Positions 18,441 to 42,261 of a DNA stretch of 59,070 nt are shown in pieces. Position 1 is the first letter of the stretch; every line of letters starts with the position of its first letter. This DNA comes from Candidatus Binatia bacterium (lineage in GTDB: Bacteria; Desulfobacterota; Binatia; UBA9968), in assembly GCA_036407055.1 (NCBI GenBank), contig DASWZY010000128.1, positions 1 through 59,070 of the forward strand, written 5' to 3'. A program made the position numbers and the translations under genes. The notes under the pieces were generated by a model. It saw nothing but the letters and a program-made list of their open reading frames with translations, was not told where the DNA came from and searched no databases.

Positions 18441-19346
18441 ATGTATACCGTCGAACACTTGGCCAATATTCGATTGTACGAGCTCGAGCGAGTTTCCCCC
18501 TATGTACGCAAAGGCTCGAAAGTTCTTGAAATCGGCGCCGGCATGGGCTTGCAGGCCAAACAATTGAGCGAACTGGGCGTCCGCGTCACGGCGATCGACG
18601 TTCCCTCCAGCTTTTACAAACCCGACCAAATATGGCCCGTCATCGAATACGATGGCGTCCATATTCCGTTCCCCGATGATTATTTCGACGTGGTCTTCAG
18701 TTCGAATGTTCTGGAACACATTCCCCACGTTCTGTCATTTCAAGCCGAATTGCAGCGCGTGCTGAAGCCCGACGGTATCGCGATCCATATTTTGCCGTCG
18801 GCGTGTTGGCGGATTGCCAGCACCATCGCTCATTACGCATGGGTTGTAGACGGCGCGTTCAAGCACTTCTTAAAGCGCAGATCGACTTTCGAAATCGAAG
18901 AAGCCGGTAATCCACGCAGCGAGCCTGCGAACAACAAACCGCGCCTAATCAGGACTCTCATCGCGCCCGAAAGACATGGAGAGTTCGGCAACACGATCAC
19001 GGAAATGTATTATTTCAGCAAATTTCGCTGGAACCGTTTATTCAATGCAACAGGATGGACGATCGAAGAGCATTCTTCGAATCGATTGTTTTATACCGGC
19101 TATTGTATCTTGGGTTTGAAGCTGTCGATCCGCGCGCGCCGCCTTTTGAGCTATGTCTTCGGCAGCGCGTGTCATGTGTTTATATTGAGAAAAGCTCCGG
19201 CGCCGGCGTTTGCCGCGGAGCGCGTCGCCGACTCAGGCGCAGACCGCCGCACCGTGGCGGCCCTTATCAAGGCCGTTGTCCCCTTATACTGCTTCGCGTC
19301 TCAGCTTTGCGACTTCTCGATACTTTCTGACTTCCAGATATTATGA
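18441..19346 (+). CDS. Class I SAM-dependent methyltransferase
   Basis: Motif I KVLEIGAGMGLQA, FDVVFSSNVLEHIP, LKPDGIAIHILP. GGAGGT Shine-Dalgarno (SD) sequence upstream. Visibly more AT-rich than its neighbours. Confidence 0.8.
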   Translation: MYTVEHLANIRLYELERVSPYVRKGSKVLEIGAGMGLQAKQLSELGVRVTAIDVPSSFYKPDQIWPVIEYDGVHIPFPDDYFDVVFSSNVLEHIPHVLSFQAELQRVLKPDGIAIHILPSACWRIASTIAHYAWVVDGAFKHFLKRRSTFEIEEAGNPRSEPANNKPRLIRTLIAPERHGEFGNTITEMYYFSKFRWNRLFNATGWTIEEHSSNRLFYTGYCILGLKLSIRARRLLSYVFGSACHVFILRKAPAPAFAAERVADSGADRRTVAALIKAVVPLYCFASQLCDFSILSDFQIL

Positions 19347-20761
19347 TCAGCCGCGTTCACCGGCGGTGGCTGCTGATACTTGTCGCCGCATTATCCCTGC
19401 CGGTTCTCGGCCGTGCAGATTCTTTTCCCGGCGGCTTTATCGAAAAGGCGGACACCAAAGTCGTCCGCCCGCGCTTGACGGCATCGCAGATAGCGTCCTT
19501 TGTCCCCTCCAATCGCGGCAAATTTCGCTTTCCCCCGCCGTATAACACGGAGGCGATCCGCATCACGACGGCGGCCGACTGCGGCGGCAAAGATTGCGTC
19601 GCGCACGTCGGCTATTCGTACTGGATGAACATCAACAATCACGTCGGCAGCGATACGATGCTGATTTTTCTTGGCCTGGACCGCCGTTACGGCGGCACCG
19701 GGCCGACTCTTTTCAGCTACAACAAACTTACCGACGAAGTAAAGAATCTCGGCCCGCTCTTCGACGGCGGGAGCCGTCTCAGCTGGCGCGGCGGGCTTGA
19801 CTGGTATTTCAGCGCGCGCCAGCCGACCAAGCTATACGTGAACGACGAAGACGCGCGCCTGTACCGCTACGATGTCCGAACCAAGTCACTCGAGACCGTC
19901 TTCGACGCAGCTCCGCGATTTGGAAGGGACAAAGATATAACGCAACCGCACTCCAGCAACGACGACCGGGTTCACTCCGCGACGCTCCGCTGTAAAAGAT
20001 CCGGCTGCACCGACGGAACGCATACGGCTGTCGGCGATGAGGACATGCTCGGTTGTCTTGTGTACAACGAAGGCAAGCACGAATTTTCCAATTATCCACG
20101 GAAACAAAAGTTCGACGAATGCCAGATCGACGCCAGCGGCCGCTGGCTAATCATTCTGGAAAAAGTTCAGGCGGCGGAGCCCGACAGCATCGATAACGTG
20201 ATCATCGATCTCGAGACGGGAAAGCAGCGGACGATTTTATCCAACCAGAACAAAGTCTCCGGCGCCGCTCACGGAGCCATAAGCCATCTCGATCTCGGTT
20301 ACGGTTACATGATCGGAGCCGACAACAGTTACCGCCTGGGTAACGCGAAAGTTCTTTATAAATTCGCTGAGGATCCGCTGCAGGGAAAGCTGGTTTACTA
20401 CAATGGCGATTGGAACGCGCCCGCACCGAACCATATCAGCAACCGCAACAGCGGGTCTGACGTCCCACCGGAGCAGCAATACGCGTGCGGGAGCGGCGCA
20501 AGCAAGAACAACGGCCCGCGGGCGAACGAGATCGTTTGTTTCACTCTGAACGGTTCGTTGGATGTGCTCGTTGTCGCGCCGGTGATGACCGATTTGAACG
20601 TTTCGTCGCGATGCGACGACTACTGCTTGCAGCCAAAAGGGAATCTGGACGTGACCGGCCGTTACTTCATTTGGACGACCAATACGGGCGGCCAAAGACT
20701 CGATGCGTTCATGGTGAAAGTTCCCGGACAGCTTCTCTCTTCTCACAGAGCGTCCCGCTGA
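19343..20761 (+). CDS. Secreted protein of unknown function; paralogue of the N-terminal ~440 aa of the 36392-38944 protein
   Basis: Signal peptide MISRVHRRWLLILVAALSLPVLGRA. Shares long strings with the 850-aa protein: FPGGFIEK, VGYSYW, NNHVGSDTM, NLGPLFDG, QPTKLYVN, DECQID.SGRWL, LDVLVVAPVMTD, PKGNLD.TG.YFIWT. ATGA overlap with the upstream gene. Confidence 0.7.
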   Translation: MISRVHRRWLLILVAALSLPVLGRADSFPGGFIEKADTKVVRPRLTASQIASFVPSNRGKFRFPPPYNTEAIRITTAADCGGKDCVAHVGYSYWMNINNHVGSDTMLIFLGLDRRYGGTGPTLFSYNKLTDEVKNLGPLFDGGSRLSWRGGLDWYFSARQPTKLYVNDEDARLYRYDVRTKSLETVFDAAPRFGRDKDITQPHSSNDDRVHSATLRCKRSGCTDGTHTAVGDEDMLGCLVYNEGKHEFSNYPRKQKFDECQIDASGRWLIILEKVQAAEPDSIDNVIIDLETGKQRTILSNQNKVSGAAHGAISHLDLGYGYMIGADNSYRLGNAKVLYKFAEDPLQGKLVYYNGDWNAPAPNHISNRNSGSDVPPEQQYACGSGASKNNGPRANEIVCFTLNGSLDVLVVAPVMTDLNVSSRCDDYCLQPKGNLDVTGRYFIWTTNTGGQRLDAFMVKVPGQLLSSHRASR

Positions 20762-24134: not shown

Positions 24135-25175
24135 ATGTCCAGAGGTAAAGCGATGCAAGTTGAAAAACTCCGTCAAGAACCGCCGCGCGGAACAGCGAAG
24201 CCGCCGCTTCAAGGAGCTTCCCGAAACGCGTCATCGACGCCGCATGAAGCATCTGTCACGGTACTGATTCCTTGCTACAACGAAGATTTGACGATCGGAA
24301 AAGTCGTGCGGGACTTTCAGGCCGAGCTGCCCAACGCGACCATTTGTGTCTTCGATAACAATTCTACCGATCGGACCATCGAAGAGGCCGCTCAGGCGGG
24401 CGCAAGCGTCGTGCGTGAAAAACGCCAGGGCAAGGGATATGTGGTCCAGGCGATGTTCCATCGGCTGGACTCGGACGTTTATCTGATGGTCGACGGCGAC
24501 GGCACTTATCCCGCCTCTGCCGTTCATGCATTAATGCGCCCGATTCTCAATGACGAGGCCGACATGGTCGTGGGATCCAGACTCCACAGTGAATCCGAAA
24601 GCCGCTTTCGGCTGGCAAATAAATTCGGCAACGGATTGTTTCTATGGATCTTAAACCGGCTGTTCCACGTTCGCTTGACCGATATTCTTTCCGGCTACCG
24701 CGCCTTCAACCGTCGCTTTGTCAAAGATATCCCGGTATTTTCCCGCGGTTTTGAGATCGAAACGGAGCTTACCATTAAAGCCCTGCAACGCGGGTACCGC
24801 GTTGTCGAAGTGCCTGTCGACCTCCGCGCGCGACCCGACGGAAGTTTTTCGAAGATACGCATTCTGCACGACGGCTTTCTGATTCTCAATACGATTCTGG
24901 CACTGTTCCGCGACTATAAGCCGCTTACGTTCTTCGGCTTTACAGGAATCGCCTTCGTTATCGCGGGATTGATCCCCGGCGCCATCGTTGTTTCGGAGTA
25001 TTTGAGAACGGGACTGGTTTTGCGAATGCCGTCCGCGTTGCTCGCCGTTGGACTCGTCATCACCGGCGTGCTGCTGCTGGTCGTCGGGTTGACGATTCAT
25101 ACGATTGTGCGGCGCTTTCAGGAACTGGATTACAAACTGCAATCGGTCGCGAACGAGCTCAGAGCCCGCCGCTAG
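24135..25175 (+). CDS. Membrane-anchored GT2 glycosyltransferase with the architecture of polyprenyl-phosphate sugar synthases (GtrB/DPM1-like)
   Basis: VTVLIPCYNED, VFDNNSTDRT, MVDGDGTYP, plus two C-terminal TM helices (LTFFGFTGIAFVIAGLIPGAIVV; LLAVGLVITGVLLLVVGL). Alternative start at ATG 24153. Confidence 0.75.
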   Translation: MSRGKAMQVEKLRQEPPRGTAKPPLQGASRNASSTPHEASVTVLIPCYNEDLTIGKVVRDFQAELPNATICVFDNNSTDRTIEEAAQAGASVVREKRQGKGYVVQAMFHRLDSDVYLMVDGDGTYPASAVHALMRPILNDEADMVVGSRLHSESESRFRLANKFGNGLFLWILNRLFHVRLTDILSGYRAFNRRFVKDIPVFSRGFEIETELTIKALQRGYRVVEVPVDLRARPDGSFSKIRILHDGFLILNTILALFRDYKPLTFFGFTGIAFVIAGLIPGAIVVSEYLRTGLVLRMPSALLAVGLVITGVLLLVVGLTIHTIVRRFQELDYKLQSVANELRARR

Positions 25176-25202
25176 CGCGGCTCAAGACATCGGAGATCGT
25201 CA

Positions 25203-25919
25203 ATGAACGAAGAAAACATAACGGTGTCGGATCTCGAAATCATGGCGCAAGCGCACAACTACCGCAGTTGGATGTTTCGGCAGATAGCTCCCTTCATCGG
25301 CCGGCGGATTTTAGAAATCGGCGCGGGCATCGGCAATTTTACGAACCTCATGCTCGACCGCGATCTGGTGGTCGCCGCCGACGTCTACCCGCCGTGTGTG
25401 GAATATCTGGAAAAACGTTTTGCCGACAAACCCCACGTGCTGCCGAGGCGGTTGGATGTCGCCGATCCGGCGACGACCGCTTTGGGAAAGTACGATTTAG
25501 ACACGGTCGTTTGTCTGAACGTGCTGGAGCACGTCGAAGACGACATCGGCGCGCTTTCGCATATGTTCGCCGTGCTGCGCAGCGGCGGCAGTCTCGTATT
25601 GCTCGTGCCGGCTTTTGAATTTTTATTCGGGACAGTCGACTCGTCGTTGGGTCACCACCGGCGCTACACCAAACCGCCGCTGGTGCAAAAAATGCGACAG
25701 AGCGGCTTTGCCATCGAGAAGGTCTTCTATATGAACCTCATCGGCATAGCCGGCTGGTTCCTCAACAATCGCGTGTTCAAGAGAACGGAAGAGTCTCCGA
25801 AACAGATCGCGCTCTTCGACCGACTGATCGCTCCTGTAGCGGAACGTGCCGAAAAGTTATTCCAGCCGCCGATCGGCCTTTCCTTGATAGCCGTCGGCCG
25901 CAAAACTACTGTTTCATAA
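25203..25919 (+). CDS. Class I SAM-dependent methyltransferase
   Basis: RILEIGAGIGNFT (motif I), VVCLNVLEHVEDD, LRSGGSLVLLVP. Confidence 0.85.
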   Translation: MNEENITVSDLEIMAQAHNYRSWMFRQIAPFIGRRILEIGAGIGNFTNLMLDRDLVVAADVYPPCVEYLEKRFADKPHVLPRRLDVADPATTALGKYDLDTVVCLNVLEHVEDDIGALSHMFAVLRSGGSLVLLVPAFEFLFGTVDSSLGHHRRYTKPPLVQKMRQSGFAIEKVFYMNLIGIAGWFLNNRVFKRTEESPKQIALFDRLIAPVAERAEKLFQPPIGLSLIAVGRKTTVS

Positions 25920-25933
25920 AACGGAAGCTCAGC

Positions 25934-27643
25934 ATGGAGCATCAAAATGCCGATCGCCTGGCGGCGCCCGTCGGGCGAGATATCTCCGTAGACGAGCCCG
26001 GCGTGAGAGGACGCACGGCGTGGCTGCGCAGCTACGGTTTGTTGATCGCTTTATACGCCGTGATAACCGCGGCGACCGGTGCGGCTTTCATGGGCGATAC
26101 CATCGGCTATGCCGACAGCATCCTGGAATCGAAATTCTTCGAGTTCGGGCATCTGCTCTGGTTCTTTATTGGCTGGCTCGCTTCTATGGCTCTCGCGCCC
26201 TTTACCGGCCTCGAGCCGCGCCTGAACATCATTTTCGCGCTCGTCGCGGTTAATTGGGCGGCCGGATTGCTGAGCGTGGTTCTCTTATACAGCCTAGCCC
26301 GGAACATTGCGGAACGGGAATGGCCGGCGATTTGCGCTACGATCGGGTTCATTTTCTCCCAAGCGTTTCTTGACCTCGCGCACAGTGGATGCGCGTATAT
26401 CCCCGGCCTGTCGCTTCTCCTGCTCGGTCTTTGGCTGCTGTTTCGCGCCGAAGAGCAGCCCCGGCACGCTACGCGATACGCGATTCTGACCGGCGCGGCT
26501 TTTGCGACCACCGTCGCCTTATGGTTCCCTTACGTAACGGCCGTTCCCGGCGCTCTTCTGGCGACGCTCCTGTTGTTCGGATTTAACCGCCCAAGGCTTT
26601 CTTTCATCATTCGGACCGCAGTCGCATGCGGCTGCATCGCCCTGATTATCTACGGAACAGCTGCGCTGCTTCAGGGCATCTACACGCTGGGCGGCTTCAT
26701 GGACTGGGTCCATTCGTCATCCCACGGCATTACCGACAAGGGCAACTTGCCGCGATTGCTTTTCGGTATTCCGCGCTCGTTTACGTTCACGGGCCGCGAC
26801 GGCTCGATGTTCAAACGATTCTTGTATCACGATCCTTACAATCCGGTTTCCCTTTTCGACTTGTTCCAGGGAACGCTGGCGAAACTGCTTCTCTTCTACT
26901 TCCTAGCAGTCGCCACCGCCGTCGTCCTGGTACGATCCGATCGAGGACGTCGCCTGCTCGCTTTCCTTGTGCTCAGCACAGCCCCCCTGCTCGCACTGGC
27001 TCTGCTGTGGGAGGCAGGAGCGATCGAAAGATACTTGCCTCTCTACCCCGCGCTGTTCATTTCGTTGTCGTATGCTTTGAGTCGACGCACGAGATTTTTT
27101 CTCTACGAGATATTGGTCGGAGTCTGGATCGCCATGAACATCATAGTGAACACCAGCGCGCTGGCCAACTCGACGCTGGCAGCGCGCCAGCAGCGAGTGG
27201 CTGGTCGGGTGGAGCCATTGCAGCCGCTATTGAAGCCGCACAGCGTAATCGCGACTTTGAGTCAGCTCGACGAGCTGTGGGCGTTTCCCTGGGACTTTCC
27301 GTTTCATCCCATCAATCAAAAACAATCGCTACCAACGTATCATGTTCAGGAGCCCGGCACGACACAGATTCCCGTGTGGAGGCAGAACTTCGCCGCTAAG
27401 GCACGAGCCGTGTGGAGCGCCGGCGGCGACGTCTGGGTATCGAAGAGGCTGCTTGCCCCAAAACCGAAAGCCGAGTGGAACTGGGTCGAAGGAGACGACA
27501 GCCGAATTACCTGGCGCGATATCTACGATTACTTTTCAGAGTTCGAGTACGGTCAAGCTCTAGGCGGCGAAGACGGTTTCGTACTTCTCCGACAGTCGGC
27601 GAACAATGAGACATTACTCGCCCGATCTGACTCGGGCGCATGA
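25934..27643 (+). CDS. Polytopic membrane protein of unassigned family (GT-C-like topology), tandem copy A
   Basis: About 12 hydrophobic helices followed by a soluble tail of about 170 aa. Acidic MGDT..YAD just after TM1. Clear paralogue of 27731-29461. Confidence 0.6.
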   Translation: MEHQNADRLAAPVGRDISVDEPGVRGRTAWLRSYGLLIALYAVITAATGAAFMGDTIGYADSILESKFFEFGHLLWFFIGWLASMALAPFTGLEPRLNIIFALVAVNWAAGLLSVVLLYSLARNIAEREWPAICATIGFIFSQAFLDLAHSGCAYIPGLSLLLLGLWLLFRAEEQPRHATRYAILTGAAFATTVALWFPYVTAVPGALLATLLLFGFNRPRLSFIIRTAVACGCIALIIYGTAALLQGIYTLGGFMDWVHSSSHGITDKGNLPRLLFGIPRSFTFTGRDGSMFKRFLYHDPYNPVSLFDLFQGTLAKLLLFYFLAVATAVVLVRSDRGRRLLAFLVLSTAPLLALALLWEAGAIERYLPLYPALFISLSYALSRRTRFFLYEILVGVWIAMNIIVNTSALANSTLAARQQRVAGRVEPLQPLLKPHSVIATLSQLDELWAFPWDFPFHPINQKQSLPTYHVQEPGTTQIPVWRQNFAAKARAVWSAGGDVWVSKRLLAPKPKAEWNWVEGDDSRITWRDIYDYFSEFEYGQALGGEDGFVLLRQSANNETLLARSDSGA

Positions 27644-27730
27644 CGGCTCCCCAAGCGCTCCGAACGAGAAGGACGTCCGATTCGCGACATTCGCGTCCGT
27701 CGCTCGCTAGCTGAGCAGAAAGTTACGACG

Positions 27731-29461
27731 ATGACTAACCCGATGAGAGACTCCACGCAAGTCATTGCTGCCGCACGCCGTCGCCCTTTTAAAATCGCGG
27801 CCGTCGGCCCTATCGTCGCCTGGCTCCGCAGCTACGGAAGAATTGCTGCGCTCTATATTGCCGCGACATTCTTCACCGGCGCCATCTCCATGGGCGATAC
27901 CGACCATTACGCCGAATTCATCAGGACTTCCCAGGTGTGGGATTTCGGCCACCTGTTGTGGATTGTGCTCGCGTGGAGCGTATCGAGAACGCTGCAGCCG
28001 TTCACCAGTTTTACGCCGCTCAACAATGCGATTTTCACGATGATGACACTTAGCTGGCTGGCGGGACTGCTGAGCGTGCTTTTGCTCTACGACAGCACGC
28101 GCCGAATCGCCAAACAGAGCTGGGTGCCTGAATTCGTGGCCATCGGTTTGATCTTCAGCCACGCTTTTCTCAATTACGCGCAAACCGGGTGTTCGTATGT
28201 CCCAGGCCTGTCGATGGCGCTGCTGGGTCTTTGGCTTCTTATTCGAGAAGAGGACATAGCCGAGCACTCGAGAGCGAGCGGCATCGGCGCAGGCTTTGCG
28301 TTCGCCGCGGCAGTAGGCTTTTGGGTGCCTTACATCTTCGCCATGCCGGGTCTAACGGTCTCTACGATGATTCTCTTCGGCGTAAGCCGCTGGCGGTTGT
28401 TCCAGTTCGCCCGCGTAGTGTTGTCTTTCGGGATATTTTGCTTAACCCTGTACGGCGGCGCCTGCATGCTTCATGGAATCTACGATCTTGAAGGATTCAG
28501 ACAATGGGCGATCGCCCCCGGAATGATGACCCAGATCAGCGGCTTTAATCGGATGGTTTTTGGCTTCGCGAGGTCCTTCTTCAACATGGCAACGGATGGC
28601 GTGCTTTATAAACGGTATCTGCTTCACGACCCCTACAATCCGGTTTCTTTTCTCGAATTGCTCCGCCTCAGCCTGGGGAAGCTTCTTTTCTTCTACGCGG
28701 CGTTCGGCGTTTGGATTTTCGCGCTATTCACCTCTCGCGCCGGCAGGCGATTCACGGAGCTTTTCATCGCTTGCGCCGTTCCCGTCATGCTCTTCGCGTA
28801 CAGCTGGCAGGGGGGCGATACGGAACGGTACTTTCCGCTGTATCCAGCGATCTTCTTAATGCTGACCTATGCTGTGTCGGAAGGACGGCTGATCGTCTGG
28901 AGTCGTGTTCTCGCGGCTATATGGGTGTTCGGCATGATGTATACCAACGGCGCCGCGTTGTCGAATACGAAAATACGCGCCGTCCACGACCGGTCGATCG
29001 CCAGGATCAAAGACCTCCAGCCTTTGTGGAAACCGCACAGTCGAATCGCGACCGTGTTGATCCAAGACGATGTATTCCGTTTTGCATCCGACTATCCATT
29101 CGATCCCTTAAGCACGACGGGCATGTTGGCGTACGACTCCGAGCTCCGACTTCCCGCGGCGATCGACATCATCGATCGAGGCAGCGCCGACACACCGAAA
29201 TGGCGGGAAAAGTTCGCGCAGCTGACGCTCCAGGCCTGGTCTGTCGAAGGCGATCTGTGGGTAAGCAAGCGCGTTTTTAACGACCGTCCGCCGCGTGCCG
29301 AAACGCACTGGGTCGAAGGAGACGATCCACGCGTCACGTGGCGCGACGTCTACGAATACTTTTTGCAATTCGACTACGGCCGAGCCGTAGGCGGAAATGA
29401 CGGCTTCGTTCTTCTCGCCAGGTCTCCGAAAAACAAGCGTTTGCTCGACGGCCTCGACTAA
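27731..29461 (+). CDS. Polytopic membrane protein of unassigned family (GT-C-like topology), tandem copy B
   Basis: Same architecture as copy A. Shared strings: AWLRSYG, FGHLLW, HDPYNPVS, ERY.PLYPA.F, W.SKR, WVEGDD.R.TWRD.Y.YF..F.YG.A.GG.DGFVLL. Confidence 0.6.
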   Translation: MTNPMRDSTQVIAAARRRPFKIAAVGPIVAWLRSYGRIAALYIAATFFTGAISMGDTDHYAEFIRTSQVWDFGHLLWIVLAWSVSRTLQPFTSFTPLNNAIFTMMTLSWLAGLLSVLLLYDSTRRIAKQSWVPEFVAIGLIFSHAFLNYAQTGCSYVPGLSMALLGLWLLIREEDIAEHSRASGIGAGFAFAAAVGFWVPYIFAMPGLTVSTMILFGVSRWRLFQFARVVLSFGIFCLTLYGGACMLHGIYDLEGFRQWAIAPGMMTQISGFNRMVFGFARSFFNMATDGVLYKRYLLHDPYNPVSFLELLRLSLGKLLFFYAAFGVWIFALFTSRAGRRFTELFIACAVPVMLFAYSWQGGDTERYFPLYPAIFLMLTYAVSEGRLIVWSRVLAAIWVFGMMYTNGAALSNTKIRAVHDRSIARIKDLQPLWKPHSRIATVLIQDDVFRFASDYPFDPLSTTGMLAYDSELRLPAAIDIIDRGSADTPKWREKFAQLTLQAWSVEGDLWVSKRVFNDRPPRAETHWVEGDDPRVTWRDVYEYFLQFDYGRAVGGNDGFVLLARSPKNKRLLDGLD

Positions 29462-35196: not shown

Positions 35197-36411
35197 ATGG
35201 CAATAGACATCGTACAGATTTTTGATTGTTTAACGCTGCTGTCCTTCGGACTGATATTCTACACTTATGCAGGATATCCCGGACTTCTGTGGATGTTGAG
35301 TAAGCTGGCGGGTAAACCCGAGCAGTCTTCGAGCGCACCACCGCAGTGGCCGGCGGTTAGCATCCTCATTTCCGCATACAACGAAGAACGCGCGATCCGC
35401 GCACGCATCGAGAATCTCTTGCAGCTCGACTACCCGAAGGACCGAATCGAGATTCTCGTCGGCTCGGACGGTTGCACCGACCGCACCGCTGCGATCGTTG
35501 CGTCTTATCCCGGCATTCGCCTGCTCGACTTCGCTCAGAGACGCGGCAAGGCCAGCGTCCTCAACGATCTCGTAGCGGCGGCGCGTAACGAGATCGTGGT
35601 TTTGACGGATGCCAACACGTACTTTCGCGCCGACGCGGTGCGGGAACTCGTGCAGGCACTTTGGCGCTATCCTTTCGGATCGGTCGTCGTCGGCCGACTC
35701 GAGCTCAGGTCGTCGGCCGATAAAGGAAACCTCGACGGCGCCTATTGGCGGTATGAGACGTGGATCAAGACGCTCGAGTCGCGGTTCGGCAGCCTGTTGG
35801 GCGCGAACGGCGCCATCTACGCATTCCGCCGCGACCGTTACAGACGCGTTCCGGCAGAGGCGATCGTCGACGATTTCCTCATTCCCATGCTTATGCGGCG
35901 CGATTGCGGCGATCGGACTTTCTTCGTCCCCGCGGCGCGCGCATGGGAGGAGTCGCCCGAGGAGGTCAAGCACGAGTTTCGCCGCCGGGTCAGGATCGGC
36001 GCCGGCGATTTCCAAGCCTTGAAATGGACATGGTCTCTGCTGTTGCCGACGTATGGGATGACCGCGCTGATCTATTTCTCTCACAAGGTGCTGCGCTGGC
36101 TGGGACCGTGGTTCCTGTTGGCGGGATTGATCGGCACGGTAACGCTGCTCGACGAGCCGCTGTTTCAGTTTTTGCTCGTGGGACAGGTTATTTTTTATGC
36201 CCTGGCCGTCGCGGGCACGACTCTCAGGCCTTTGCCGGCCATCGGCGGTTTGGCCGTGGCGGCGCGCTATTTCGTGATCCTTAACGCGGGGCTATTTCTT
36301 GGTCTCGTGCGGCTGAGCCTTGGCGCGGCGCGGCCGACATGGGCGACCGCGCCGCGCAAGACCCTGGACATGGAGGGCCGACGCTTACACGCTAAGGCGT
36401 CCGTGAAATGA
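35197..36411 (+). CDS. Integral-membrane GT2 glycosyltransferase (synthase-like, TM helices at both ends)
   Basis: VSILISAYNEE, LVGSDGCTDRT, VLTDANTYF, FRRRVRIGAG (QxxRW-like position), N-terminal and C-terminal TM helices. Confidence 0.8.
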   Translation: MAIDIVQIFDCLTLLSFGLIFYTYAGYPGLLWMLSKLAGKPEQSSSAPPQWPAVSILISAYNEERAIRARIENLLQLDYPKDRIEILVGSDGCTDRTAAIVASYPGIRLLDFAQRRGKASVLNDLVAAARNEIVVLTDANTYFRADAVRELVQALWRYPFGSVVVGRLELRSSADKGNLDGAYWRYETWIKTLESRFGSLLGANGAIYAFRRDRYRRVPAEAIVDDFLIPMLMRRDCGDRTFFVPAARAWEESPEEVKHEFRRRVRIGAGDFQALKWTWSLLLPTYGMTALIYFSHKVLRWLGPWFLLAGLIGTVTLLDEPLFQFLLVGQVIFYALAVAGTTLRPLPAIGGLAVAARYFVILNAGLFLGLVRLSLGAARPTWATAPRKTLDMEGRRLHAKASVK

Positions 36412-38944
36412 CCGCATTCGCGATCGTCGACCCGGCGCTCCATAGCGCGGTATCCATGTAGAGCGGGTACTTGGGAGTCTTCGCGCTCGTGTAGAACACG
36501 ACGCCGTTCTTATAATATTTAACAATCTTATTTTCGACCGCGATGCGAAACACGTCGCCCGTGGAGTAGGACGTCGAACCGCGATATACACCGCTCTCGT
36601 AGACTTCCACGTAATGGCCACCGCTGCTGGAGAGGGCATCCCAAAGTGAGATAGCGTACGCCATGTTATCCCGGCTCGTCCCTGCGGTCGACGACGCGAG
36701 GCCGACGCTTCGCTGTGTCGTCATTTCCGATGCTGTGAATTGAACGTAGCCGTTGCCCGAGGAGAGGCTCTGCGCTGAAAGCGCTCCGGAGTTGGCGCAA
36801 CCGCCGCAGTTTTCCTGAAGCGAATTGCCGCTCACCGTCACGTTCACCGGATTTACCCAGGTAACATTCTGAGCCGAAAATGTCGCCGTTGATTTCACAC
36901 GCGAGCCCATCACCGTTACAGTCACAGACGCCGACGTGCTCTTGTTGCCGCGTTTGTCGCGAGCGATAGCCGTGAGTGTATGCGTCCCGTTTGTTGCCGT
37001 GCCGGTGTTCCAGTTCACTGTGTAGGGTGCAAAGTTGTCTTCAGAGCCAAGATTCTGGCCGTCGAGCTGGAATTGGACGCCTGCGATGCCGTCGCTATCC
37101 GACGCGGTGGCGGTCACCTTGATTTTCCCCTTCACGGATAATCCGCTACTCGGAGTAATAATCGCAACGGTCGGAGCGCTGCCGCCGCTGGGGCCCGTGG
37201 GACCAGTCGGGCCCGTCGAAGATCCTGTTGTGGTTAATGTAAAATCTGCCGACGTCGAGAGACTGCCGGCCGAGTCCTTAGACTTTACACGGTAGTGATA
37301 CGTCGTATTCGCCGAAAGACCTGCGAGGCTCTGCCCATGCGACGTAACCATTGTGCCGTTGACGGAACTAGCACTTCCATAGGAGGCGGTCGTACCGTAT
37401 TCCACCTGGGAATCGCTGGCCTTGTCGGTGTTCCAGCTGATGGTCGCGCCGGAAGACGAGATTACCGGAGCCGACACTGAGCTGATGACCGGGGGTGTAT
37501 CGGCAGGAGGCGGAGGCGGCGGTGGAGGCGGAGGATTGGGGTTCGTGGGCGCAACGCCGGTCAAAACCTGCGATGGAATTTTTGCGATAAAAGCATCCAT
37601 CCTGTTGGTGCCCGCGTTACCCGTCCAGATAAAATACTGTCCGGTGATATCCAGATTGCCTTTTGGCAGTCTGCAATAATCGTCGCAGCCGCTGATCATA
37701 CCGATATTTACGTCCGTCATGACGGGCGCGACTACCAAGACGTCGAGCGATCCATCGAGACGGAAGCAAATAACCTCGTTGGCTTCCTGGCCGTTCTCGG
37801 CCGGCCGGGCGCCGCTGCCGCAGACGTACTGCTGTTCGAGCGGCAGATCGCGTCGCGCGTTCGCGAAACTAACATGCTGCGGTCCCCACGTGTTCCAAGA
37901 GGCGGTGTAATACACTACCTGGCCGCCCGAGATGGGGTTGCCGCCGAATTGCCAGGAACGGAATGCCCCGGGATGAGAATTCGCGTTGTCGGCGGCAATC
38001 ATCGTGCCGTACCCGCTGTCGGAGTGTCCGCCGGCGCCGTCGCGGTCGAGCAATACGGTCTCGACTCCATTCGATAGATCGATAATTCGGTTATCGAGGT
38101 CGGAATTGGGATCGATGCCGGTTTTTTCTTTGATTAAGAGCCAGCGACCGCTTTTGTCAATCTGACATTCGTCATAGTTCAAGCCTTTCTGTGGGAAGTA
38201 GAAGAACGTGTTCGTCGATTGACGGTACGCGAAGCAGCCAAGGTCGGCGTCGTTAGACTTGTCTCTCAATGTAGCGGAATGGACGTTGTCGTCGGCGCTC
38301 GAGTGGAATTGAGTGACGTAGCGATTGCTGCCGAAAATGTCAGGCCGCGATGCGACGTCGAACACCAGTTCGAACGTGTGGCTCACCACATCATAACGGA
38401 ACAATGTCGAATCCTGCCAATAATTGACGTAAAGCTTCGTCGGCTGAGTATCGCTGAAGTACCATCCGTTTCCGTTCGCCCAACTCCATTTGCTGGCGCC
38501 ATCAAAAAGCGGACCGAGATTCGTGACCACGTCGGTTTTTTTGTTATAGCTCAGAAGCGAAGGACCGGCGCCGCCGCGGTTTCTATCCATCACGAGGAAA
38601 ATATACATGGTGTCGCTGCCTACGTGGTTGTTCGTGTTGCGCCAATACGAATACCCTACGTAATCGATGCAATCGTTTCCGCCGCAATCGGACGGAATCG
38701 TCAGCCGCACGCCTTTCGTGTTGTAAGGACTGGGAAAATTAAACGGCCCTCGTGTCGCCGGAAGAAAGCTATTTATTTGGGAAAGGGTCAAACCTGCCGG
38801 TCTGTTTGTCGGAAGAATCGGGCTTTTCTCTATAAATCCGCCGGGAAATTGGGCGGTTGCCGGATCAACGGCGATCGTTAACGTTGCTATCAATAGCAGA
38901 ATGAATGCAGCCAGCATCGCCGGCCGCGGGTCTCTTAACCTCAT
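36392..38944 (-). CDS. 850-aa secreted multidomain protein: unknown ~440-aa module + poly-Pro linker + FN3-like + Ig-like + C-terminal jelly-roll/lectin-like domain
   Basis: Signal peptide MRLRDPRPAMLAAFILLLIATLTIAVDPATA. N-terminal module is paralogous to 19343-20761. Ten consecutive Pro codons at 37505-37534. FN3-like ISWNTDKASDSQVEYGTT...TTYHYRVKSKD. Ig-like VQFQLDGQNLG...PYTVNWNT...GTHTLTAIARDKRGN. 3' end overlaps the convergent GT2 by 20 nt. Confidence 0.8.
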   Translation of the reverse strand: MRLRDPRPAMLAAFILLLIATLTIAVDPATAQFPGGFIEKSPILPTNRPAGLTLSQINSFLPATRGPFNFPSPYNTKGVRLTIPSDCGGNDCIDYVGYSYWRNTNNHVGSDTMYIFLVMDRNRGGAGPSLLSYNKKTDVVTNLGPLFDGASKWSWANGNGWYFSDTQPTKLYVNYWQDSTLFRYDVVSHTFELVFDVASRPDIFGSNRYVTQFHSSADDNVHSATLRDKSNDADLGCFAYRQSTNTFFYFPQKGLNYDECQIDKSGRWLLIKEKTGIDPNSDLDNRIIDLSNGVETVLLDRDGAGGHSDSGYGTMIAADNANSHPGAFRSWQFGGNPISGGQVVYYTASWNTWGPQHVSFANARRDLPLEQQYVCGSGARPAENGQEANEVICFRLDGSLDVLVVAPVMTDVNIGMISGCDDYCRLPKGNLDITGQYFIWTGNAGTNRMDAFIAKIPSQVLTGVAPTNPNPPPPPPPPPPADTPPVISSVSAPVISSSGATISWNTDKASDSQVEYGTTASYGSASSVNGTMVTSHGQSLAGLSANTTYHYRVKSKDSAGSLSTSADFTLTTTGSSTGPTGPTGPSGGSAPTVAIITPSSGLSVKGKIKVTATASDSDGIAGVQFQLDGQNLGSEDNFAPYTVNWNTGTATNGTHTLTAIARDKRGNKSTSASVTVTVMGSRVKSTATFSAQNVTWVNPVNVTVSGNSLQENCGGCANSGALSAQSLSSGNGYVQFTASEMTTQRSVGLASSTAGTSRDNMAYAISLWDALSSSGGHYVEVYESGVYRGSTSYSTGDVFRIAVENKIVKYYKNGVVFYTSAKTPKYPLYMDTALWSAGSTIANAVISRTP

Positions 38945-39017
38945 TACTCTGGGTCTCCTCGCTGAATGAAATGAGCCCGTAGGCTTTGAGGCTAAGAGTG
39001 CCCTTACCTGCGTCGAT

Positions 39018-41363
39018 GTGATACATATTTGTATGAGGGAATCGCCTCAGGAAAAGAGGAAAATGGCCGTCCGGAGGCACAGTTTCGAAGAAATTTTCAG
39101 GGCACAAGATCCCTTTATAAGTCAAGGATTTAGGCTATTCGTCCGGGAGATCTCCGGAACGCGGGAAGTCGCCGCGCTCCGCGAGTTCTTTATCCGCTTT
39201 AACGGCGAGCTTTACCGCGCTTCTTGGATCGACAAAACCGCGAAGATTCCGTGGGCGGCGGACATGCTTACGGCGCTTGTCAGCGCGAACTCCGCGTTGA
39301 CCACCGGGGTCCTCCGGGAGCTGCTCGACGAGATGAAGCTTCACTACCAGGACCCCATCACAGACGTGATTTTCGAGACCGCGCCCCGATCGCGGGTGCT
39401 GCTTTCTTTGGTCGGAGATATCGTCCAAGGCGAGAGCCAGCTGATACAGCTCAGGATTCGGGCGCTCGAAGCGCTCTTTACACGCCTCGCGCTCGGCCGA
39501 CGCGCTTTCCGACCTGCCGCACCGGTTGACGAGACGCTTCGCTCCCTCAACGATATTCTCGCCGAAGTGAACCGCGACACGGCGACCGCAGTTGCCAAAA
39601 ATCATGACAGGCTCGCAAAAGAGCTCCAGTCGGTTAGCCGAATGCTTCCTGCCTTAACGCGAAATCCGCCGGCGGACGCCGCCGGTGCAGCCGAAAACCG
39701 CGGCCAGTCGAGCTACCGCGAAATTGTCGATTTACTGGAAACTGTTCTGCAGCAGCCTTCCGGTTCGATGACCGCAGACTATCTCGCGACATTGCTGCGT
39801 ATTCTGCGGCTCACAACCCAGCTTCCCGAATGGCGTCCCCCGTCAGCAGGCACCGACCGGAGCCGGGTTAAGGCGGCGAACGGAAGCCGCCGCGAGGCGC
39901 GTCTGACATCGGCCGAGCAAGCCGGCGCGGAAGCGCTCGACGACGATTCGAACCTGGTTGTGGCGCTTATGATCGATCGCGCGGTCGCGACCGTGCTGGA
40001 GGTCGCTGCGGCGCCGTGGAGCGCGCAGGGAGAACGGCGTAGCAAGGTGCGCGCCGCCGATGAGACGCTTCTAAATCCTTCCGATCCGCCGCTTCTCGAA
40101 TCTGTCCTGCTTGACAACAAGAGTCGCACGAAGACGCGCCACACGGCCGCCTCCCTGCTGTCCCTGCTGAGCTATGCCCTGCCGGCCGTGCAGCCTTCAC
40201 CGCGCGCGGGCTTTTTCACGCAGCTTTTTTTGATGCCGTATCGCGCGGGCGGAATTCATTACCGGCTCCGGGACGACGAAGACCTCGCGATTGTCGATGC
40301 CGAAGAGAAGCTCGATTACTTGTTCGAAGCGCTGGACGAGGAATCCGATTACGTGCGCTGGAACGCGGCGACGCTTTGCTATCAGTGCGCGCGCGAGCAC
40401 CCCGAATGGTTCAAGTCGAAACACTATATCAAGCTCATGTCGCTGCTCTCGGACGAGCATTACGGTATTCGCCTCGACATGATGCGCACAATCCGCACGC
40501 TGGCGGCGTTTCGCAACCAGGAAATATTCACGGTCATACACGACATCTCCGGAAAGCTCGCGGAGAAAGTCTACCGGGTAAAGGACAAAGAGCGCGCACG
40601 CGTCGATCTCGAGACGGCGCTCGGGGTCAGTCTGGCGACGCTGCTCGAGCGCGTGGAGGAATTGCAGGGCGAGGTGCTTCGTCTCGAGACCCGCCGCGAG
40701 CAGCTATTGAGCTATCTCGAGAAGCAGGCTTTCCGCATCGGCGAGGAAATCCATCATGAGGTCTTGAACACGCTCTGCAGCTATCTTGCGACGGCAATCG
40801 ACGAGCGCGATTTCGCGGACGCGGAGGCGCGGCTCGGCGACGTGGTCACCGAGCTGAGACGCATCATGAACCATCTTTACCCGAAGGATCTCGAAGCCGA
40901 GGGTTTCATAGCCACGATCCGCAAGCGGCTGGACGATGTGCGGATGCAGATGCGCCGCCGCGTGCCTGAATTCGCCGTCGACTTCGATTGCCCGCCCGAC
41001 GTGACGGACGAGGCGATCGCCGCAAGCTTGCGCGATAAGTCTCACCTCGTGCTGCTTTACCGGATCGTCTCGGAAGCGCTCATCAATGCGCGAAAGCATT
41101 CGCACGGAACGCAGATCGTCGTGCGCCTTCGCCGGCCGCGCTTCGGCGTCATCGAAATCTCGGTGAGCGACAACGGCCGCGGCGGCGGCGGCCCCTTCGA
41201 GCAGAGCTTCGGCATCGATCTTATGCAGCGGCGGGCCGAAGATATCGGCGCGGATATCGATTATCGAAAAACTTCCGCCGCCGGCGGCACGACCGTGCTT
41301 ATCCGTCTCGCCCAATCTTCGGGGGAATTAGGCAAGGGCCCGGAGCTTGCGGGCATCGTCTAA
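39018..41363 (+). CDS. Soluble sensor histidine kinase (HisKA_3 + HATPase_c) with a long helical/HEAT-like N-terminal region
   Basis: No TM helix visible. H-box region FRIGEEIHHEVLNTL. ATPase motifs EALINARKHS, ISVSDNGRG, GIDLMQRRAEDIGADI, GGTTVLIRL. HEAT-like DYVRWNAATLCYQCAREHPEW...IRLDMMRTIRTLA. Start is ambiguous (GTG 39018, ATG 39033 or ATG 39063). Confidence 0.75.
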   Translation: MIHICMRESPQEKRKMAVRRHSFEEIFRAQDPFISQGFRLFVREISGTREVAALREFFIRFNGELYRASWIDKTAKIPWAADMLTALVSANSALTTGVLRELLDEMKLHYQDPITDVIFETAPRSRVLLSLVGDIVQGESQLIQLRIRALEALFTRLALGRRAFRPAAPVDETLRSLNDILAEVNRDTATAVAKNHDRLAKELQSVSRMLPALTRNPPADAAGAAENRGQSSYREIVDLLETVLQQPSGSMTADYLATLLRILRLTTQLPEWRPPSAGTDRSRVKAANGSRREARLTSAEQAGAEALDDDSNLVVALMIDRAVATVLEVAAAPWSAQGERRSKVRAADETLLNPSDPPLLESVLLDNKSRTKTRHTAASLLSLLSYALPAVQPSPRAGFFTQLFLMPYRAGGIHYRLRDDEDLAIVDAEEKLDYLFEALDEESDYVRWNAATLCYQCAREHPEWFKSKHYIKLMSLLSDEHYGIRLDMMRTIRTLAAFRNQEIFTVIHDISGKLAEKVYRVKDKERARVDLETALGVSLATLLERVEELQGEVLRLETRREQLLSYLEKQAFRIGEEIHHEVLNTLCSYLATAIDERDFADAEARLGDVVTELRRIMNHLYPKDLEAEGFIATIRKRLDDVRMQMRRRVPEFAVDFDCPPDVTDEAIAASLRDKSHLVLLYRIVSEALINARKHSHGTQIVVRLRRPRFGVIEISVSDNGRGGGGPFEQSFGIDLMQRRAEDIGADIDYRKTSAAGGTTVLIRLAQSSGELGKGPELAGIV

Positions 41364-42261
41364 TTCATCGGCAAATCCCGTGGCAAGCAAAGCACGGCAA
41401 AAACCTCAGAACGGCCATAAGCCGGCCCTCAGGATTCTCATCGCCGACGACTCTCCGGATTCCATCGATCAAATGAGCTCGTGGATTCGGGAGCGGTGGC
41501 CAGATACGGAGATCTATCGCGCGCAGACTCCGGACGAAGCGGTATCGATCGCCGACGATCAAGACGTGGAGAACATCGTGCTCGACCTCGATTTCGTGGT
41601 CCAGCGCGTCTCGGGAGTGGAGATCGCCCGCCGAATCCTACAGGCGAGAGCCGATAACGAAGAAAGCCGCACGCGCATCCTCTTTCGCACCGTCCATGCC
41701 GGCGATCCCAGCTACCTGCATCAGATCGACAAGCTCATCAACGGCGAAAAGAACAAACCCGCCGTGTGGGGATTCGTAGACAAAGGAGCGATGCCCAAAC
41801 GGCTCGTGCAAAACGCCGTCGAGCAGGTTTTCATTTACGAGCTTTCCTTCACGGAAGTCTTCAGCCAGAACTTGAAGGATTCTCCTTCCCGGGAGCTGAG
41901 CGACATCGAGTTCACCGTCTTGCTTTACAGCTGCCTCGGCGTCACCAACGACGGCATCGCGTGGCTGGTGGGCGCATCGCGGCAGAGCGTCGAGCGCGTC
42001 TTGACCGGTCTTTACCAGAAGATGAAAATTCCCACGCGGCGCGACGCGCCGCAGGGCGTCACCGCGCTGCTCGAAAGCCGCGGCCGGCTATACTACGAGG
42101 CGTTGACCCGCGGGCTCATCAATCCGCATTTGATGCGCGAGCAGGACGAAGCGCTACGCCAGCGCGTTAAAAAAGACTCGCCTCAACGCGGCCGGCTTTA
42201 TGTCGACAAGGAATGGCTGGAGCCGTTGCCGACGACAGAAGCTCGCGAATCGCAAAGGTAG
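41347..42261 (+). CDS. Response regulator: receiver domain + degenerate LuxR/GerE-type HTH, with long linker and tail
   Basis: LRILIADDSPD, IVLDLDF (putative phospho-Asp), GFVDKG. HTH-like LSDIEFTVLLYSCLGVTNDGIAWLVGASRQSVERVLTGLYQKMKI. Overlaps the kinase gene by 17 nt. Confidence 0.7.
   Translation: MRASSNSSANPVASKARQKPQNGHKPALRILIADDSPDSIDQMSSWIRERWPDTEIYRAQTPDEAVSIADDQDVENIVLDLDFVVQRVSGVEIARRILQARADNEESRTRILFRTVHAGDPSYLHQIDKLINGEKNKPAVWGFVDKGAMPKRLVQNAVEQVFIYELSFTEVFSQNLKDSPSRELSDIEFTVLLYSCLGVTNDGIAWLVGASRQSVERVLTGLYQKMKIPTRRDAPQGVTALLESRGRLYYEALTRGLINPHLMREQDEALRQRVKKDSPQRGRLYVDKEWLEPLPTTEARESQR

Follow-up and report, generated by a model that had tools for sequence, protein, structure and literature searches.

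A predicted exported beta-propeller and jelly-roll protein in a convergent slot at the end of a Binatia exopolysaccharide locus, with diverged alleles that appear to be exchanged independently of their flanks

The slot gene and its domains

The window analysed here is a stretch of 59,070 nucleotides (nt) from a Candidatus Binatia bacterium (assembly GCA_036407055.1, contig DASWZY010000128.1, positions 1 to 59,070 of the forward strand). We describe one minus-strand gene within it, hereafter the slot gene, which encodes a protein of 850 amino acids (aa) and closes an exopolysaccharide (EPS) locus by running convergently on the last gene of the biosynthetic operon. The protein combines an N-terminal beta-propeller with a C-terminal jelly-roll, and alleles of the gene appear to have been exchanged within the genus independently of the flanking genes. 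The gene and its parts are as follows.

36392..38944, minus strand: whole gene, the type-A allele of a variable slot, 850 aa (open reading frame (ORF) list; 1,240 homologues; allele typing)
38852..38944, minus strand: Sec-type signal peptide (MRLRDPRPAMLAAFILLLIATLTIAVDPATA, then QF), ending in ATA and with no lipobox Cys (identified by eye; N-terminus kept in homologues)
37535..38851, minus strand: beta-propeller module of an unannotated family (AlphaFold2 (AF2), Foldseek and invariant columns)
37505..37534, minus strand: linker of ten consecutive Pro codons (sequence)
37229..37459, minus strand: FN3-like domain, Pfam Pur_ac_phosph_N, aa 496-572 (E 4.8e-7, 30.7 bits against a cut-off of 30)
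37190..37216, minus strand: (TGP)3 linker (sequence)
36968..37174, minus strand: bacterial Ig-like domain Big_7, aa 591-659 (E 2.3e-19, 70.2 bits against a cut-off of 24.1)
36395..36892, minus strand: C-terminal ConA-like beta-sandwich, a probable, predicted carbohydrate-binding module (AF2 and Foldseek)

An initial annotation, made from the sequence alone, had described an 850-aa minus-strand ORF, the sole minus-strand gene before 39 kb, with ten Pro codons, a (TGP)n linker and FN3-like, Ig-like and lectin-like domains in that order. All of these features were recovered at the positions listed above. The gene ends in a TAG stop (36392-36394). Its ATG at 38944 is preceded, 10 nt upstream, by a GAGGAG Shine-Dalgarno sequence, and orthologues begin MKLRDPRPA. 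Because of the Shine-Dalgarno sequence and the homologue N-termini, the 850-aa start was favoured over the 841-aa call in the database. The remaining long ORFs on the minus strand overlap genes of the plus strand for which there are clear family matches (for example, the tyrosine kinase at 684-1694), and the slot gene is therefore the only real minus-strand gene in this part of the window.

The Pur_ac_phosph_N match was marginal, falling just over the gathering cut-off, yet it recurred among homologues. The Big_7 match spanned the full length of the profile and was accompanied by sequence matches to the PDB entries 3pdd, 3pe9 and 9kvu. Pfam returned nothing for aa 1-470 or aa 685-850, and a search of the protein against NCBIfam gave no additional match. 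The FN3-like and Ig-like assignments of the initial annotation were thus confirmed at the family level, while a LamG or CBM family match, for which it had proposed a search, was not found and the lectin-type fold was recognised by structure only.

The protein is predicted to be exported, since it has a Sec-type signal peptide and ten Cys residues spaced as five nearby pairs. None of the anchor motifs that we looked for in it (lipobox, PEP-CTERM, LPXTG, transmembrane segment, basic tail) was found. By eye, no Cys follows the signal peptide to form a lipobox, and the C-terminus reads ...STIANAVISRTP. The proposal that the protein is surface-displayed was therefore not borne out beyond the signals for export.

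Position in the exopolysaccharide locus

The plus-strand operon spans 0.7-36.4 kb and belongs to the exopolysaccharide loci of the XrtA/PEP-CTERM and Wzx/Wzy type. It contains genes for a tyrosine kinase, a priming transferase, a flippase, a polymerase, several glycosyltransferases of the GT4 and GT2 families, two AsnB-like amidotransferases and a carbamoyltransferase, along with FemAB-like acyltransferases, a deacetylase, a heparinase II/III-like protein and an NDP-sugar 6-dehydrogenase, which was closest to UDP-glucose dehydrogenases. Given this gene content, the polymer of the locus is likely to contain uronic acid. Among the family matches in the window, no transporter or catabolic genes for breakdown products adjoined the slot gene. 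The genes that matter most for what follows are these.

35197..36411, plus strand: GT2 glycosyltransferase, final gene of the EPS operon and convergent partner of the slot gene (family matches)
39063..42261, plus strand: histidine kinase and response regulator, divergent neighbours of the slot gene (family matches; kept in all genus loci examined)
19343..20761, plus strand: stand-alone 472-aa paralogue of the propeller inside the operon (52% identity to the slot protein over residues 14-462)

The paralogue had already been noticed in the initial annotation, and together with the slot gene it makes up the two propeller-family copies of the source genome.

The convergent slot was present in every locus of the window's genus that was fetched (L002, L003, L004/G160, L012, L016, L020/G159, G153 and G161). 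The order was AsnB-GT4-dehydrogenase-FemAB-GT2, followed by the slot gene, which diverges from a kinase-regulator-GT-C-GT2 series. A homologue was also found convergent with GT2 at the same end of the gene order in a metagenome-assembled genome (MAG) of Rokubacteria (L021), without the kinase and with no stand-alone propeller copy. Since the same slot occurs throughout the genus and in the Rokubacteria MAG, the slot gene is most simply seen as an old part of the locus, and the slot at the end of the EPS cluster appears to predate the divergence of two bacterial phyla. One genome carried two tandem multi-domain copies in the slot, of 815 and 1094 aa (L020 5347-11285, equivalent to G159 C186:45963-51874). 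The record for L020 is labelled Verrucomicrobiae. Its genome was placed in the window's genus and the locus was syntenic with those of Binatia MAGs, so the label is probably wrong.

Two unannotated domain families

The propeller family comprised 1,625 clusters at 90% identity when the paralogue was used as the query. Its members occurred alone or fused to FN3, Big_7, LamG, DUF11, dockerin, CBM-type or Calx-beta tails, and they came from MAGs labelled Binatia, Rokubacteria, Nitrospirae, Acidobacteria and Gammaproteobacteria, among others. Identity stayed near 50% across several phylum-level groups. In 48 propeller sequences, 69 columns were invariant and these were rich in His, Asp, Glu, Gln and Arg. 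They included H107, H222, H307, H357, D185, D196, D218, D219, E259, D263, D309, Q212 and Q372, and Arg65, Arg80 and Arg448 were also invariant. Three Cys pairs were invariant as well (87-92, 237-260 and 375-393), and the slot protein has further Cys residues at 420 and 424.

The AF2 model of the module, made with the 48 sequences, was a beta-propeller (predicted local distance difference test score (pLDDT) 90.6, predicted template modelling score (pTM) 0.89). Its best Foldseek matches were the PL22 oligogalacturonate lyases 3PE7 and 3C5M (E 7.1e-12 and 1.3e-11), which superposed over 427-432 aligned columns with a template modelling (TM) score of 0.59 on the length of the query and 0.72 on that of the matched structure. 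Generic propellers appeared at about 1e-7, roughly four orders of magnitude worse. In PL22 enzymes the Mn2+ site is reportedly formed by three His residues and a Gln, and is accompanied by an Arg and by a His that serves as base. A tblastn search of the propeller against 50,697 phage records gave no match. By structure, a viral protein of 1172 aa (BFVD entry A0A8E5NQ64) was by far the best viral match to the propeller model (E 1.5e-15, TM score on the query 0.62).

The last 166 aa of the slot protein were modelled by AF2 as a 15-strand beta-sandwich (pLDDT 92.5). Foldseek matched this domain, at TM scores of 0.4-0.64, to GH16 lichenases, SPRY domains, galectins, L-type lectins, CBM66 and the beta-sandwich of a GH32 levanase, with a probability of 1.0 for GH16, SPRY, galectin, L-type lectin and CBM66. 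The jelly-roll or lectin suggested for this region by the initial annotation is thus consistent with a ConA-like lectin/glucanase fold. No Pfam family matched at E<=10 the window's jelly-roll or four of five homologous fragments, and the fifth fragment had a chance-level match to PA-IIL only (E 0.084). Likewise, none of the named families of the ConA superfamily (LamG/Laminin_G_3, GH16, SPRY, CBM) matched any of six representative jelly-roll domains at E<=10.

An exhaustive search placed the domain in a family of at least 3,668 representative clusters at 50% identity, 569 of them below 1e-30, with the motifs GNGY.EFTA, GD.FRI and KNG..FYTS. Elsewhere it was found in tandem, with 19-25 copies in proteins of 5,400-6,500 aa (for example, P0287 with 5433 aa and P0288 with 6469 aa), and it was fused to GH18, parallel beta-helix, CBM6, CHB_HEX_C, PKD, Calx-beta and Kelch/PQQ propeller domains. 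Because of partners such as GH18, CBM6, the beta-helix and PKD, we infer that the jelly-roll is likeliest to be a carbohydrate-binding module. Three shorter homologues (P0227, P0231 and P0235) are labelled Bacteroidia or Puia.

Allele exchange uncoupled from the flanks

The slot gene did not share the history of its neighbours. Compared with L002, the window was 100% identical in the regulator, 99.6% in the kinase and 99.4% in the downstream GT-C protein, and on the operon side 94.8% in GT2, 95.6% in the dehydrogenase, 93.5% in GT4 and 92.8% in AsnB, whereas the slot proteins were only 59% identical. At the DNA level, in 200-nt windows, identity was 0.84-0.96 over 28.7-36.3 kb, 0.48-0.80 within the slot gene and 0.90-1.00 from 38.95 kb on (1.00 from about 39.95 kb). 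It fell from 0.94 to 0.55 and then returned to 0.96, with breaks at the ends of the gene. Such a trough was seen in the profiles against G161 and L002 and not in that against G153. By their flanks, the loci closest to the window were L002, then two species-representative genomes of the genus, first G161 and then G153 (kinase identity 92% in G161 and 82% in G153). The slot proteins, in the same order, were 59, 62 and 83% identical.

An all-against-all comparison divided the flanks into two lineages, one with the window, L002 and G161 and the other with L012 and G153. The alleles of the slot gene fell into class A (the window, G153/P0002, P0003 and P0004) and class B (L002/L003, G161, L012 and P0015), and both classes occurred in each flank lineage. 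Within class A the propeller was 89% and the jelly-roll 80% identical, and within class B the values were 76-95% and 80-93%, against 53-57% between the classes. The FN3-Big_7 middle was independent of allele class, with 74-78% identity in most pairs. In the comparison of L012 with G153 the middle was 94% identical and followed the flanks, while the outer modules were 55-57% identical. From this pattern of identity by class and by flank, the propeller and jelly-roll switch together while the spacer between them does not. The stand-alone paralogue, in contrast, evolves in step with its neighbours (84% identity, against 67-89% for the neighbours).

We suggest that the history of the slot gene became uncoupled from that of its flanks through the exchange, within the genus, of deeply diverged old alleles. 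In the maximum-likelihood tree, type A and the G160 type stood beside the stand-alone clade, and type B was placed elsewhere. Separate origins of the type-A and type-B propellers were considered and dropped, as approximately unbiased (AU) tests did not reject a single origin (p 0.20 and 0.32). The claim is therefore restricted to exchange of old alleles in the genus, and implies neither separate origins nor a direction of transfer.

Co-variation with polymer-decorating genes

Two genes about 10 kb upstream of the slot gene were associated with its allele type.

25203..25919, plus strand: methyltransferase (MT3), with a close orthologue only in the other type-A genome
25934..27643, plus strand: GT-C-like membrane protein (unk569), with a close orthologue only in the other type-A genome

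They belong to a decoration block (24135-29461 of the window) of a methyltransferase and two GT-C genes, which varies within the genus (L018, L003, L022 and L020). Close orthologues of MT3 and of the unk569 GT-C (88% and 82% identity) were found only in G153, the other type-A genome. G161 and L003, which are type B in the window's own flank lineage, had no methyltransferase and a GT-C 44-45% identical, and L022, which is type B in the other lineage, had an MBOAT gene, a gene of about 340 aa and a GT-C 41-43% identical. A close orthologue of MT3 was likewise missing from G159, G160 and G154. In all, MT3 and the unk569 GT-C were either absent or at most 47% identical in G161, L003, L022, G159, G160 and G154. 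The MBOAT gene and the gene of roughly 340 aa adjoin AsnB in both L022 and L020. The apparent co-variation of allele type with the decoration genes is suggestive, and would be expected if the slot protein recognises the decorated polymer.

Function of the slot protein

The explanation that we favour, at what we judge to be about an even chance, is that the product of the slot gene is an enzyme, exported by Sec and disulfide-bonded, whose target is the polysaccharide of its own locus and which has a matched binding module and exchangeable alleles. The propeller would be the catalytic part, most likely a metal-dependent lyase or else a hydrolase, acting on a uronic-acid polymer. The poly-Pro, FN3-like and Big_7 segments would be spacers, and the C-terminal jelly-roll would bind the same polymer. 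The gene would be transcribed alone, from a divergent region common to it and the two-component system, and would converge on the last glycosyltransferase gene of the operon. The two deeply diverged alleles would move between strains by recombination, with the propeller and jelly-roll switching jointly and in step with the decoration genes, and the specificity of the enzyme would be matched to the polymer variant. A more far-reaching version, which we regard as possible and put forward tentatively, is that of a two-state specificity cassette, in which propeller and jelly-roll are exchanged jointly between strains of an uncultured soil lineage and keep pace with the methyltransferase/GT-C module, so that polymer and enzyme stay matched in a serotype-like manner. 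In that version the two domains would define new families, the propeller one of polysaccharide lyases and the jelly-roll a very widespread one of carbohydrate-binding modules.

Several observations count against an enzyme of this kind. The case for catalysis comes down to fold similarity and residue conservation only. PF14583 did not match the whole protein at E<=1 or the 48 propeller-family members at E<=10, it gave a single chance match elsewhere in the source genome (E 0.555) and nothing in 151 genomes of the phylum. No convincing match to any Pfam family was obtained for the 48 members at E<=10, and a profile of the propeller family found no match among PDB sequences. His360, present in 41 of 47 aligned homologues, is replaced by Phe in the slot protein and by Asn in the paralogue. 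PL22 enzymes work in the cytoplasm, on short oligomers. The two AsnB-like amidotransferases could turn uronates into amides, which a lyase would be unable to attack. The co-variation draws on a comparison of two type-A genomes with three to six others, and these genomes are related among themselves. Finally, all of the sequences compared are metagenome assemblies, and the window's own bin (89.6% complete, 6.35% contamination) is mixed, with a contig from a second strain. Chimeric joins at both ends of the gene, repeated in independent assemblies (JGI, NCBI and ENA), seem unlikely.

The slot protein could instead be a non-catalytic matrix protein or adhesin, whose propeller and jelly-roll would both act only as lectins that cross-link or anchor the EPS or bind other surfaces, and whose alleles would match the polymer variant or escape phages and predators. 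Adhesins typically combine FN3/Ig spacers with folds of the lectin type, giant proteins carry the C-terminal domain in arrays of up to 25 copies beside PKD and Calx-beta, the propeller lacks a match to a catalytic family, and the His360 conserved in most homologues has been lost. However, about 50% identity across several phylum-level groups and 69 invariant columns resemble an active site more closely than they do the surface of a lectin. The nearest fold is that of an enzyme, PL22, a stand-alone copy without a binding tail lies inside the biosynthetic operon, and there is no cell-surface anchor. We consider this alternative rather unlikely. Still less probable, in our judgement, is a depolymerase directed against the polysaccharides of other organisms, for scavenging or for attack on the matrices of competitors, and not against the cell's own EPS. 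Foraging enzymes are usually secreted, multi-domain and equipped with binding modules, the same propeller is elsewhere fused to dockerin, LamG, DUF11 and CBM-type tails, and frequency-dependent competition could produce an allele dimorphism. Such a role fits poorly with a position at the end of the EPS operon that is kept in two phyla, with a second copy inside that operon, with an allele type that follows the strain's own decoration genes and with the lack of adjoining transporter or catabolic genes.

The initial annotation had taken the gene for a separately acquired one, visibly more AT-rich than its surroundings, which would make it a foreign, recently acquired and compositionally distinct addition displayed at the surface. 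Its GC content is indeed lower (0.561, against 0.598 +/- 0.030 in the 36 other genes of the window), and the 38-39 kb bin has the lowest GC of the window. Nevertheless, the computed values lay within the spread of the neighbours (z about -1.2 for GC and about -1.3 for GC3, which was 0.664 against 0.724 +/- 0.045), an outcome that the initial annotation itself had named as refuting its proposal. Four operon genes have a lower GC content and a fifth, FemAB2 (0.564), is about equal. The synonymous-codon distance of the slot gene to the rest of the window was 0.101, ranking 28th of 37. The lower GC derives mainly from first codon positions (GC1 0.508) and reflects a protein rich in Ser, Gly, Thr and Asn. 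Acquisition inferred from composition therefore fails on GC, GC3 and codon usage, and also on the old slot, which is syntenic across the genus and in the Rokubacteria MAG. Both allele classes circulate inside the genus, the AU tests do not reject a single origin of the slot propellers and no anchor motif was found. What stands of that proposal is that the gene and its flanks have different histories, through allele exchange within the genus. As a whole we consider it very improbable. For annotation, the case is a warning that exchange between close relatives escapes tests of composition.

Comparison with known systems

Among characterised proteins, the PL22 oligogalacturonate lyases (YeOGL, 3PE7, and Vibrio VPA0088, 3C5M) resemble the slot protein most, sharing the beta-propeller as its best structural match by a wide margin and, probably, a uronic-acid polymer as substrate. 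Unlike them, the slot protein shows no detectable sequence similarity to PL22, is about 80 residues longer, is predicted to be exported and disulfide-bonded and not cytoplasmic, is fused to FN3, Ig and jelly-roll domains, and is encoded in a biosynthetic and not a catabolic locus. If the propeller is a lyase, it would represent a new family of exported enzymes whose fold is akin to that of PL22.

Several EPS operons encode enzymes that trim their own product, such as AlgL for alginate, PslG for Psl, PelA for Pel and BcsZ for cellulose. The slot protein may be analogous to these, as an exported, putatively polysaccharide-active protein encoded and conserved together with biosynthetic genes. It differs from them in fold and family. 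The locus also has an operonic copy and a second one that is convergent and multi-domain, and this second copy comes with a control region of its own and with alleles that are deeply dimorphic.

Serotype-type variation is known from capsule and O-antigen loci, and the receptor-binding or depolymerase modules of phage tailspikes are swapped in a similar manner. By analogy, diverged alleles would also be exchanged here at conserved flanks, with specificity modules that switch, linkers that stay and co-variation with sugar-modifying genes. The variable unit, however, would be a secreted bacterial enzyme or lectin and not a polymerase, a flippase or a phage protein, and the phage records searched held no sequence homologue of it. 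The C-terminal domain resembles the ConA-like lectins and glucanases in its beta-sandwich and its carbohydrate-binding-type partners, but it matches no Pfam family of that superfamily, reaches only the modest TM scores given above and forms a large family of its own.

What the present analysis newly adds is the C-terminal family, the dimorphism of the alleles and the co-variation. Two large unannotated domain families gain a testable role. The two versions of the putative enzyme, on near-identical backgrounds and each apparently tied to different decoration genes, amount to a natural experiment in which each pairing yields a prediction of the polymer that a given version cuts or binds. Exchange of a capsule-like, serotype-like kind may also operate in uncultured soil bacteria, probably of the class Binatia.

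Control region and 3′ overlap

Three further features lie at the borders of the slot gene.

38945..39062, no strand: divergent control region common to the slot gene and the kinase gene (alignment of six loci)
36392..36411, no strand: convergent 20-nt overlap of the stop-proximal ends of the slot gene and GT2 (sequence)
36323..36357, no strand: GC hairpin in the 3′ end of GT2, stem about 15 bp, without a U tract (folding z -2.9)

As described in the initial annotation, the slot gene is divergent from the histidine-kinase gene, with a spacer of 118 nt if the kinase starts at ATG 39063. This start (MAVRRHSF...) is probably the correct one rather than GTG 39018, and it yields the same spacer of 118-121 nt in six loci. 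The spacer was conserved beyond many of the proteins. Its conserved blocks were TGAGG-N6-CCTCA, in which the arms are conserved and the spacer varies, the palindrome ATGTATCACAT, GGGCACTCT and the Shine-Dalgarno sequence GAGGAG. Owing to this strong conservation in six loci, the earlier suggestion that the gene is separately regulated is supported for what appears to be a monocistronic gene, and its control is perhaps common with the two-component system. TGAGG-N6-CCTCA and ATGTATCACAT are candidate operator sites for the adjacent response regulator. A search of Rfam with the slot gene and its spacers gave no match, and scans for promoter and terminator consensus sequences stayed at chance level.

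The 20-nt overlap with GT2 had also been reported initially. It recurred in L002, L003 and L012, with both C-termini conserved, and an overlap of the same length with a different sequence was present in the Rokubacteria MAG (L021 10381-10400). Given this recurrence, the overlap is real and does not stem from a mis-called stop. In L004 and L020, which have a shorter GT2 protein, the overlap was absent and the two genes are separated by gaps of 6 nt and 1 nt, respectively. The GC hairpin begins about 35 nt past the stop of the slot gene, inside the GT2 coding region, and may stabilise or terminate transcripts in both directions.

The second-strain contig of the bin (G000 C145, L017, 3547 bp) covers the kinase-regulator region at 91% DNA identity and stops within the 5′ end of the kinase gene, at about 90 nt. 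It suggests that a related strain was binned together with the source genome and that the assembly breaks next to the variable gene.

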